From: Hydrolagus colliei
Taxonomy: Eukaryota
NCBI GenBank assembly: GCA_035084275.1
Contig: CM068750.1
Span: 7,130,001-7,194,000, forward strand
Direction of reading: 5' to 3'
DNA: 64,000 bases
In this document: in pieces, positions 43,411 through 49,200 of the stretch
Position numbering within the stretch: the stretch's first letter is position 1
How the letters are laid out: every line of letters starts with the position of its first letter
The notes under the pieces: model-generated
The model's database searches: none
What the model saw: only the letters and a program-made list of their open reading frames with translations
Told to the model about the DNA's origin: nothing
Made by a program: the position numbers and the translations under genes

Positions 43411-44297
43411 TCAGTGGCATCCGCATCCCTCTACCACCATCTCCTGATAGTTTTTCAACACAACTTTGTCGTATTCGTCCAAGTAGAGCATTGAGATAGG
43501 GCTGAGTTCTGTGGGGACGCAGCAAGCCTTGGGGATGTTGGAGTTTACAGAGTTTACAAGAGTCTGCACGATGGCGTGGTTGGTTGAATTCAGGTGATCT
43601 GCCAGTGGGAATGGGCAGTCGCCGTGACAGTAAAAGGCTTGGTAGCCAGGCGGTGCCACTATCCAGTCGTTCCAGCCCACATCGCTGAAATCCACATAGA
43701 GCGAGTGCCTCCTGCAGTGCGATTTGTTCTTCTTGCGTCTCAGGCCTTTGCCGCTGCGTTTCACCCTCCGGGTGAGAGCGTGTCCCTTGCCATCGTGGCT
43801 GAAAGTTACAAGCAAAGGCCTGAGCTGCGACCAATCGCCTCCAACAGCACCTCCTCCTCCTCCTCCTCCCTCACCCCTCCTCCCTCCGGCTCTCTGGTGC
43901 AGCGATCTGCTAATCCTAACGTGCGAGCCTTGCTGGCTTCTCGTCTCGTTCAGGTGAATCACTTCGACCGCCAGCCCGTGGTTAGGCTGTTTGTGCACCG
44001 TCCATCTCAACACGGCCGGGCTCACGTCAAAGCTTTCCCACTGTGTCCTGTTCTGATGGACCAACCTGGTATCCAACAGCCTGGTGATGAGGTCGCCCTG
44101 TTTGCTGGGGGCCCTCATGATCTCATAGACGTTGATGCGGTGGAAACCTTCATCCCAGTTCAACAGGCTGTCGATCCGCTCCCGGTAAACTCTCAGCTCG
44201 GCAGAAGAAAGCACTTCGTTCTCGGGAACCGCGCTGATATTAAACACAAAACGAAACGTGAAGTCTTGCCTCCAGCCTGGCACCAACTCCAAGTGGT
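43411..44297 (-). CDS. BMP4: Bone morphogenetic protein 4, last coding exon (C-terminal prodomain, furin sites, mature TGF-beta domain)
   Basis: Acceptor ...tgttgcgaaacag|AC; RISR (43917-43906) and RRVKR (43770-43756) cleavage sites; 114-aa mature domain with 7 Cys ([38 protein letters not shown]...ACCVPTEL...[23 protein letters not shown]); TGA at 43413-43411. YQAF, EYDK and YQEM favour BMP4 over BMP2. Confidence 0.97.
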
Positions 44298-45503: not shown

Positions 45504-45855
45504 CTTCGTGATGGAAACCCCTCACGGTGTTGGCCCGACTCGCCGATATCTCGGGATAATCGAAGTTGATGTCGTGGGTGATCTCGTCCCCAGACTGAAG
45601 CCTGTACAGATCCAGCATATACTGGGGAATGACGGCAGATTTGCTGGGCTGTGGGCGTCGTTGCAATCCGAACATGTTAAGTAAAGTGGCCTCGAATTCC
45701 CGTAGCAGTTCATGGTTTTGCGGAGAGCGACGTCCACCCGCCTGGTTTTGCTCAGCGAACTTCTTCCTTCCTTCCTCGGGTATTAGACTAGCATTACCTC
45801 CCAGTAAGACTTGGCATAATAAAATTACCATCAGCATTCGGTTACCAGGAATCAT
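45504..45855 (-). CDS. BMP4: BMP4 first coding exon (signal peptide and N-terminal prodomain); exon begins at 45862
   Basis: [20 protein letters not shown]...[41 protein letters not shown]...[13 protein letters not shown]; acceptor ccgtag|AGACACCATG, donor GAAG|gtact. 352 nt + 887 nt = 413 codons in frame. Confidence 0.97.
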
Positions 45856-46789
45856 GGTGTCTCTACGGAGCGCAAAACACACACACACACACAACACACA
45901 CACACACACAAAAAAAAAGGAGCGAGAATTAGAGTAATCTTCAATCAACGCCCCAGAGAGAGCGAGGGAGAGAAAGAGAGAGAAAGAGAAAGAGAGTAAG
46001 CAAGAAAGAGAGCGAGAGAGAGAGAGAGTGAGTGAGAGGGAGAGAGAGCGCTACACAGAGCAAAGAAAAGAAGAGTGAAAGAGGTATAATTACTTGGTCT
46101 GACTCGGTTACAGTTAAATAGCCCCATAATCAGTCAGATAGCACCATCATGTTACTCTTTGTGTTCCTGGGATCTCAGTAATTACCTCAGGCTGATTTTT
46201 CTTTCAGAAGTAAACAGTATAAAAATATTTGCAATGAATTTCTCCCCCTCTTGGCTCAATCGTGTTATTTTTTTTGAGGGGGTTGGTGAAGAGGGTGAAG
46301 AGTGTTTATACATTGCTCTACAAAACTACTGTCTAAACCCCGTTTAATTTCTTCTTCCCCACCTCCCCACCTCTCACCCTTCCCCCGTGGGCTCCTTTTT
46401 GATAAGACTTGTCCGTAGCGTGTGGCTGGAAACACTTTGCTTCTTGACAGCCAAGGTACAACAACAACAACAACAACAAAACACAGACCCGAGGAAGCCA
46501 CTCCACATTCAACAGGGTTTCAATGATAAAAACCATGTCGGAAAAAAGAAGGATCGCGAGTTGGAACTCTCGCTGGGAAAGAGACTGTCCAGCGCATCTT
46601 CTACACATCGCTATCTCTCTCTCTCTCTCTGTCTTTCTCTCTTTTTTTTCTTTTTAAAAAAAATCCTGCTCCAACAATTCAAAAAAAAACCAGGAACAGA
46701 AAAAAAAATGAAATTCTCCCTCCCCCAACTTATTTAGGAAGAAAGGGGCTACTCACTGACAGAAAACAAGGCAGGTGAAAACAGTCCAT
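45842..46789 (-). CDS. Spliced overlapping uORF2, 17 aa [17 protein letters not shown] (46789-46757 joined to 45862-45842)
   Basis: ATG in AUCAUGG context; runs through the main ATG out of frame and stops at TAA 45844-45842. Translation itself is inferred. Confidence 0.6.
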
Positions 46790-46882
46790 GATTCTTGACA
46801 GCCCGTACTTGGGGACAAATTCTTGAAAAGCTCAGGGACTCTGGAGCTGTGGTCGGCTCGGCTGCTTATTATCGGATCCCTC
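46757..46882 (-). other. BMP4: BMP4 5' UTR exon (126 nt)
   Basis: Acceptor ttcttccag|GAG, donor CTGTCA|gtgagt. Its 3' part ggctgtcaagaatcatggactgtt..tgccttgttttctgtca matches my memory of the human BMP4 UTR exon. Confidence 0.85.
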
Positions 46883-46974
46883 CTGGAAGAACATTTGAAT
46901 ATAATGAGCTGAGAGACTCTTCTTTCTGCGCTTTCCTTTTTCACTTCAGTCCGCAACGTCAGCGGGCCCGCCTT

Positions 46975-47215
46975 TCACACCGGTCAATCATTGCTTCCCC
47001 TTCCCCGAGCGCCCGCCTTGTCTGAAATGTCCCACCAAAAGTGCAGCGGTGCAATTGGCGGCCCCCGGGCCGCCTTGTCAATCAGCCCGGCAAGCCTCAC
47101 CTCCCCGCTGTCAATCAAACGATTAAGACCCCGCCCTCTCTCCTCGACACGCCCACCGTGGGAGGAGGGGCCTGGCGTGTGGCCCCGCCCTCCGCCTGTC
47201 CATCAATGCGAGGCA
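46975..47215. promoter_or_regulatory. GC/CpG-rich proximal regulatory block (GC boxes, CCAAT, four TGAT[T/G]GAC motifs)
   Basis: ccccgccc at 47129 and 47183, ATTGG at 47054, and gtcaatca/gtccatca at 46983, 47077, 47110 and 47198. Confidence 0.65.
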
Positions 47216-47973: not shown

Positions 47974-48379
47974 AAAATACATGCCACAATGCTGTTGGAA
48001 GGGATGGATACACACCAAAGCCCAGCGTGGCAGAAGCATTTGTACAATTATCTAAACACACTCAACAGTGCAAATGTACAAACATTTTATTTAGTCGAAT
48101 GCATTCGGATATGACTTTAGAAATCAGCGCATTTTCACTTGCAGGTAAAATGCGTTAAAACGACACAATGGATGATTAACATACCCCATTCTCACCTTTA
48201 TAGTTATGCAAGGAATTGAATTGTTAGTTAATGGGCTAACGTGTACTTTATAAATTTCGGATTCCAAACTGTCTCCTGATTATATATATATGTGTATATA
48301 TATCTCCATTTCTATCTAAGTCCGTGACACTACTGACACAGAATGGGAAACTAACTAAAAACTATTATTTTTAGTCTCT

Positions 48380-49200
48380 GTGCATAGTATCCGCGGTACA
48401 ATACACTGCCCTCGAGTCTTCCGATAAAATATATAGGGATAGGAGCTGGACTGCGCAGAAACACAGCAGCCGTTTTTACGAACAGCCCTCACACACACAC
48501 ACACACACAAAGATGCGCTTAAAATGAAATAAGTTCCCAGCACACCAGACAAAGCACCGCCTTGAATATCGTCCTTTTGCAGCACACGGGGGTCATGCTG
48601 GAGCAGTAAGAATCAGACGTGCGGCCAAAATAACACATGCATTCATTTACACTACAGAGAAGCCACAGTATACACTGTACGCAACGATCTCACTGTTTGC
48701 AAACGCACGGTGACAAAACACAGGGTCCGAACAGAAAGTTAGCGACGGACTTACCATACTGCAGTGCCGAGGATTTATCGCATGTTTCCCTGTAATCGTG
48801 TCTAATTAGTTTGCACGATCGCCTCAGTTCGCCATCCTACTTGCTCTCGCTCTCTCTCTCTCTGTTAAAGAGTCTATCGCCTTGAAACGCACAGGAGCTG
48901 CACGGGTGGCGCCTGGTGCACAAGAGCAAGCGCGCACAGAAATGCTCCGAAAAGGTCCATTTTAAGAAACATCGCCGAGGATCAATGGGAACCAACCCAA
49001 CCTGGTCTGCGGGCCGCCCAGTCCCATGCAATTTGTTGGGAAGGACGCACGTCACTGGCATTTTAACACGAGTTCATAAAGCCTCGACTCTCTGATCTCT
49101 ATAATATTTCACTTCCTTCCCGCTGAAGTGGGTGATAGTTAAGACATGTGCGCAGCAGTGGTCCTGCAAGTTGCCGGCGACTCGTGGTGTTACATACAGT
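48380..49200. promoter_or_regulatory. CpG-rich region, candidate distal BMP4 promoter
   Basis: Visibly high CpG density against CpG-poor flanks; TGGCGCC (Smad1/5-type GC element) at 48907-48913; CACGTCA at about 49048. Confidence 0.5.
48755..48870 (-). other. BMP4: Probable BMP4 upstream non-coding exon 1 (5' boundary unknown)
   Basis: Consensus donor CTGCAGTATG|gtaagt at 48754 in CpG-rich DNA; ends in ATG, as I recall human exon 1 does (...ACCTATG|). Confidence 0.6.

Follow-up and report, generated by a model that had tools for sequence, protein, structure and literature searches.

The window, a 64,000-nucleotide stretch of the genome of the chimaera Hydrolagus colliei, carries the BMP4 gene on its reverse strand (Table 1). 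ORF computation on the spliced sequence gave a main BMP4 coding sequence of 412 aa, and the last BMP4 exon is 94% identical to that of Callorhinchus milii BMP4 and 86% identical to those of sharks and rays. A glycine-rich insertion in the prodomain (43885-43840, reverse strand), ahead of the first cleavage region, brings the protein to this length, compared with 396 aa for its shark counterparts. The signal peptide (45855-45796) is unusually invariant among vertebrates, including the part beyond the stop of the upstream frame described below. The coding exons are preceded by a short leader exon, from which they are separated by an intron of 894 nt (1046 nt in the human equivalent); in one Callorhinchus model (P0254, matching from 46934) this exon is reached unspliced from a nearer promoter. 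Five placental models (P0021, P0145, P0146, P0149, and P0151) splice the proximal donor of the leader exon to an acceptor within the signal-peptide code, and the candidate inner acceptor found at this place in the chimaera may add nucleotide constraint on that code. Farther out, the stretch 48127-48262 (intronic or upstream) has a ∼87% match in a contig from run X7 (organism A).

Table 1. Features of the BMP4 locus in the window, on the coordinates of the whole stretch
Feature	Position	Strand	Remarks
BMP4 coding exon B (prodomain, mature domain, stop)	43411..44297	-	
BMP4 coding exon A (signal peptide, prodomain start)	45504..45855	-	exon runs 45862-45504 including leader bases
Candidate inner acceptor within signal-peptide code	45809..45811	-	AG position; of a type found in long-isoform models of placentals
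uORF codons 12-17 and stop	45842..45862	-	overlaps main ATG (45855) out of frame
Acceptor of first coding exon	45863..45864	-	AG, 7 nt before main ATG; 7-nt arrangement shared by in-genome paralogue
GYNNGY tandem donor (GT-CA-GT)	46755..46760	-	distal GT 46760-46759, proximal GT 46756-46755
uORF codons 1-11	46757..46789	-	3' end of leader exon, uATG at 46789
Leader exon, 126 nt	46757..46882	-	similarity of models P0003 and P0183 starts at 46881-46884
TGA 42 nt before uATG	46832..46834	-	closes ORFs from ATG 46894 or 48757
Candidate upstream exon end	48755..48835	-	strong donor 48755; three ATGs (3-, 2-, and 17-aa ORFs)

Joining the leader exon to the first coding exon (46757 to 45862) bore out, in the spliced sequence, the proposal of the initial annotation that a 17-codon upstream ORF (uORF) overlaps the BMP4 start out of frame. 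Its ATG (uATG) lies 40 nt before the main ATG and is thus out of frame with it, and its stop falls inside the BMP4 coding sequence at 45844-45842, as in overlapping uORFs (uoORFs) generally. The start contexts were also as had been described, with A-3/G+4 at the uATG and A-3/A+4 at the main ATG, of which the former ranks as the stronger by the -3/+4 rule. The further argument that ribosomes using the uATG could not simply re-initiate on BMP4 held in part: the stop does lie within the coding sequence, but the barrier had been overstated, since the stop ends 13 nt past the A of the main ATG and backward re-initiation could still occur across so short an overlap. When the 126-nt exon was mononucleotide-shuffled 5000 times, 257 of the shuffles (∼5%) also yielded an overlapping uORF with a strong start context, so the presence of the frame is by itself modest evidence, and the case rests on its conservation. 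The contigs of runs X7, X3, and X6 (organism A, presumed RNA; filtered set) left the leader exon uncovered and have no bearing on its expression, and a 22-nt pattern from the leader had 0 matches in a scan of metagenomes.

A human uORF of the same frame and length, which the initial annotation had described, was located as c14riboseqorf37 in row 2010 of supplement file 2 of PMC10032668 (this and the other papers cited for their content are drawn on in their accessible portions). The entry is assigned to BMP4 as a uoORF of 17 aa in pieces of 33 + 21 nt and is labelled "conserved"; the chimaera peptide is identical to it at 14 of 17 residues, with differences at residues 4-6 only. The same entry belongs to the 2,199 uORFs detected by at least two studies (PMC11578521, supplement file 5), and the human BMP4 uORF is intact in four further human genomes (PMC11578521). 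The human uORF is thus known as translated, as a catalogue entry, and any functional role lies outside that catalogue. The initial annotation was incomplete, in that the human uORF had already been catalogued and a second donor 4 nt upstream of the first had been missed. No published work on this uORF or on the donors that form it was found in the accessible literature (subscription papers and several supplements were outside reach), and the searched supplement files of PMC4568590 (part) and PMC8055015 held no BMP4 row. BMP4 figures as a culture reagent in the accessible portions of PMC11473369 and PMC12076418. PMC7530721, a catalogue of conserved-peptide uORFs, could list BMP4.

Conservation among vertebrates was followed in predicted BMP4 proteins with N-terminal extensions that translate the leader, and the cross-species evidence apart from human consists of predicted protein models, many of them ab initio. 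A BMP4-type start was matched by 287 records, 24 of which read the leader in the main frame via the 46757/45862 junction and cover 22 named genera, from sharks to teleosts and marsupials. The 40-nt spacing was kept in all 24 readings, as were Glu or Gln at -15 codons and Trp at -13, the latter being a residue that the search pattern itself required (the remaining extended records were without leader similarity by eye). Glu or Gln at -15 implies a purine at -3 of the uATG, and the Trp fixes the spacing and the G at +4. Main-frame readings do not reveal the A of the uATG, but combining the two frames available for a gadid pair leaves A-T-G-G as the only solution, and the uATG is explicit in 17 records that read it in frame. 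At the other end of the uORF, residue 5 of BMP4 was Asn in 260, Ser in 24, and Lys in 1 of 285 records, each of which residues allows the uORF stop, a regularity that rests on few independent changes; in 33 records of BMP2 the residue was Arg, Met, Val, Thr, or Ile. Residue -3 was Arg in 13 of 14 teleost readings, where a CGA codon (one step) keeps the overlap and AGA stops the uORF before the main ATG. DNA of organism A (run X12) showed 0 listed differences in the 47 nt from 46757 to 46803 versus 13 (11 substitutions and two one-base deletions) in the 99 nt from 46804 to 46902, a contrast with a Fisher P of 0.01 for boundaries that were picked after seeing the data. The earlier claim that the uORF, its frame, its length, and its strong start context are conserved thus stands on the human catalogue and on 24/24 database leader readings. 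Judged from these sequences, the 17-codon frame overlapping the BMP4 start is real and has been kept across jawed vertebrates.

The leader exon ends in a GYNNGY tandem donor. Splicing from the proximal donor (exon end 46757) produces the overlapping uORF, whereas splicing from the distal donor (exon end 46761) places the uATG in frame with BMP4, joined without a stop and at near full length in the manner of a uORF-connected transcript, and gives a protein of 424 aa instead of 412. Callorhinchus record P0256 has the same length of 424 aa and is identical in 59 of the first 60 residues. The 12-residue extension is present in 17 of the 287 records, all database gene models (Callorhinchus, 2; shark, 5; frog, 5; Podarcis, 2; bird, 2; possum, 1), and in none of the 132 ray-finned-type records; it was also absent from the 16 full-length placental records among the matches listed (15 of 486 cluster members). 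Models of the two forms exist side by side for Callorhinchus, Scyliorhinus, Xenopus, and marsupials, with readings that are compatible with each other. XP_ isoforms are generally based on RNA-seq introns, and aligned proteins may propagate a gene model between species. The computed U1 duplex was -2.1 kcal/mol for the distal donor versus -7.3 kcal/mol for the proximal donor. The leader exon of most teleosts ends in G, a base that would make their proximal donor stronger, in line with the absence of the distal form.

With moderate confidence we favor a reading in which the conserved 17-codon frame brakes BMP4 through its start codon and frame, not through its peptide, and in which splicing at the distal donor, 4 nt upstream, is predicted to bring that start into frame and would thereby release the brake. 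The context of the uATG has an efficiency of 88 (81-96) in mouse cells, compared with 83 for the Kozak reference (PMC4299517, file 4). In a model that multiplies k = 0.86 (PMC4299517) by 0.88 and assumes an efficiency of 0.70-0.86 for the main ATG, ∼76% of scanning ribosomes (0.86 x 0.88) would start at the uATG, terminate just beyond the main ATG, and produce no BMP4, and the proximal-donor message would yield BMP4 chiefly by leaky scanning. Each distal-donor message would, in the same model, give ∼4 to 8 times more BMP4, and a distal share of 10-20% would supply ∼30-65% of the BMP4 protein. On these modelled values the uORF is a plausible brake on BMP4. The 12-residue extension leaves the hydrophobic core intact and changes the net charge before the core from +1 to -1; the longer signal peptide of the 424-aa form would likely still be cleaved. 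Messages translated at the uORF alone would in addition be candidates for nonsense-mediated decay, because the uORF stop sits 338 nt before the last junction and the usual stop-to-junction rule exposes such messages to decay. A more ambitious proposal, possible if rather unlikely, is that donor choice constitutes an ancient regulated switch of BMP4 dose, in which one strong start flips between a brake and a productive form with a several-fold effect on output per message and an unchanged mature protein; the switch would have originated in the last common ancestor of jawed vertebrates and, in most teleosts, have become locked into the brake form through the G at the last exon base.

Alternatively, the overlapping uORF might be a real brake and the distal donor splicing noise or annotation carry-over devoid of any role, a view that agrees with the weak U1 pairing of the distal donor, with its GT being kept regardless by a frozen nucleotide block, with the known preference of gene predictors for variants that lengthen the ORF from an upstream ATG, and with the absence of the distal form from teleost records and from placental records among the matches listed. 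We regard this view as unlikely, since the distal form is modelled in six lineages from several source types (XP_, KAG, KAM, and CAI accessions), transcript models with it outnumber those without it in both Chiloscyllium plagiosum (three versus one) and Trichosurus (two versus one), and even a minor distal share would, on the model above, supply a substantial part of the protein. Alternative splicing at GYNNGY sites is indeed mostly noise and more frequent in UTRs, with 0.65% of human sites alternatively spliced, but the strongly regulated share is higher among the UTR sites, at 38.7% of testable human cases versus 14.7% (PMC4267661, accessible part).

The nature of the constraint bears on how the favored brake would work. 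Main-frame residues reveal the second and third positions of the uORF codons, and changes at these positions were counted by parsimony on the accepted tree for 18 records plus the window (one duplicate was dropped and five later records were left out). Third-position changes numbered 12 and second-position changes 7, a difference of low power (P = 0.18). Between the chimaera and either marsupials or Xenopus, only 1 of 12 third positions differs; when BMP4 is compared with its in-genome paralogue, a somewhat older divergence, 81 of 167 third positions at identical residues do (P = 0.004 for the contrast). This pattern of change indicates that constraint acts on the nucleotides, the start, and the frame. 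The frozen third positions also suit a different explanation, namely that what has been preserved in this block is a DNA or RNA element (splice signals, protein binding, or the repeated CTGTCA sequences, which we take to be TALE-homeodomain-type sites) and that the ORF is translated incidentally, with little influence on BMP4 dose; conservation reaches 14 nt upstream of the uATG, and the 12-mer preceding the uATG has an exact second copy in the intron. We nevertheless consider this explanation quite unlikely: changes cluster in codons 4-9 while the start, its context, the length, and the stop-compatible residue are fixed, indels are present upstream of the uATG and none inside the uORF, RNA structure in the uORF region did not exceed that of shuffles (z = 0.48, 0.25, and 0.20), and a strong overlapping ATG would reduce output whatever preserves it. 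Last, the option in the initial annotation that the peptide itself matters, by ribosome stalling or as a micropeptide, can draw on the close identity to human, on invariant residues 1-3, 7, 8, and 10 in 17/17 in-frame records, on the lean of changes toward third positions, and on a PhyloCSF score of 6.95 for c14riboseqorf37 in primates, but is very unlikely, given that this lean is short of a significant synonymous excess, that the PhyloCSF score in mammals is -16.30 (a measure with low power on very short ORFs) and the count of mass-spectrometry studies 0 (PMC10032668, accessible part), that residue 5 takes five states among the records and teleosts vary at residues 7 and 8 too, and that the last six uORF codons are fixed by the splice site, the Kozak context, and the coding sequence.

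Upstream of the favored brake the leader holds a further, candidate layer. The ORF from ATG 46894 comprises 20 aa and has a weak start context, and that from the candidate exon-1 ATG 48757 comprises 17 aa and has a strong one; the human c14riboseqorf38 stops 41 nt before the human uORF ATG, compared with 42 nt for the TGA shared by the two chimaera ORFs. Neither tblastn of database extensions nor the organism A contigs provided confirmation of the candidate upstream exon (48755..48835). A P/S/T-E-L/P-F block before the uATG is kept in 11 models. The intronic copy of the pre-uATG 12-mer (46452-46441, reverse strand) is not followed by an ATG, and 3 matches to the 12-mer were found at no more than one mismatch versus 0.42 expected. 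Near the proximal promoter, four TGATTGACA-like sites, presumably PBX/PREP- or CCAAT-like, lie within 230 nt (46982-47205, reverse strand); they are locally enriched and not enriched window-wide, for a motif that was picked after it had been seen.

The in-genome paralogue is a BMP2/16-like gene (G000:C3:94872359-94875757; L003, L005, and L010) with a 7-nt leader on its first coding exon. Its last exon is 75% identical to shark BMP2, and it was the sole other BMP2/4-like hit among 36 matches; it may be BMP16, with BMP2 missing or missed. A blastn search of 50 kb at this locus returned no leader exon homologous to that of BMP4, and one candidate exon there carries a non-overlapping 16-aa uORF. 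A GDF1/3-like gene (G000:C3:94887493-94887798; L012) lies in tandem ∼12 kb upstream of the paralogue, and a linkage between Vg1/univin and BMP2/4 is known to be ancient. In Heterodontus, isoform X1 of BMP2 (P0394) is extended in frame by 16 residues, the last of which resemble the main-frame reading of the BMP4 leader, and a related upstream start may exist for BMP2.

Work on the control of BMP4, a dose-sensitive morphogen, has centered mostly on transcription, processing, and antagonists. A brake shared by chimaera and human would be a concrete place for non-coding variants to alter BMP4 dose and a possible handle for raising that dose in haploinsufficiency. The tandem donor accounts for a family of odd BMP4 isoforms in the databases that are 12 residues longer, and if donor choice were regulated it would be a rare case of a leader tandem donor, usually dismissed as noise, that sets protein output.

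Several known systems resemble this arrangement in part. The ATF4 leader has a short first uORF followed by an overlapping out-of-frame uORF, and the likeness lies in an upstream ORF that ends ∼40 nt before such a uORF. The first uORF of ATF4 is 3 aa long, compared with 17 to 20 aa for the candidates here and 59 aa in human BMP4, and the overlap between uORF and coding sequence is much shorter in BMP4. The human c14riboseqorf37 is of the same gene, exon split, and length, and the chimaera uORF is its orthologue; in the parts of the catalogue examined, the entry gives no function, no depth of conservation beyond its label, and no mention of the tandem donor. The repressive uORFs of Ptch1 and other signalling genes are a case of uAUGs that lower the translation of a dose-sensitive developmental signalling gene; repression there was tested by reporters and deletion, with no splice switch in the accessible part of that paper (PMC5316868), whereas the BMP4 brake is predicted. 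In uORF-connected transcripts a donor inside a uORF joins the downstream coding sequence in frame, as the distal donor does here; in the accessible part of PMC11578521, BMP4 appears only in a conservation table, the predicted route found or kept none for it, and the GTEx route required an acceptor inside the coding sequence, whereas that of BMP4 lies outside it. The conversion of the uATG to an in-frame start by a tandem donor is the part that we did not find described in the literature. GYNNGY tandem 5' splice sites share with the BMP4 leader two GT donors 4 nt apart, and BMP4 was not found in two of the three supplement files of PMC4267661. In the accessible part of that study the shift is mostly noise or, inside coding sequences, coupled to decay, whereas in BMP4 it would turn an inhibitory start into a productive one.
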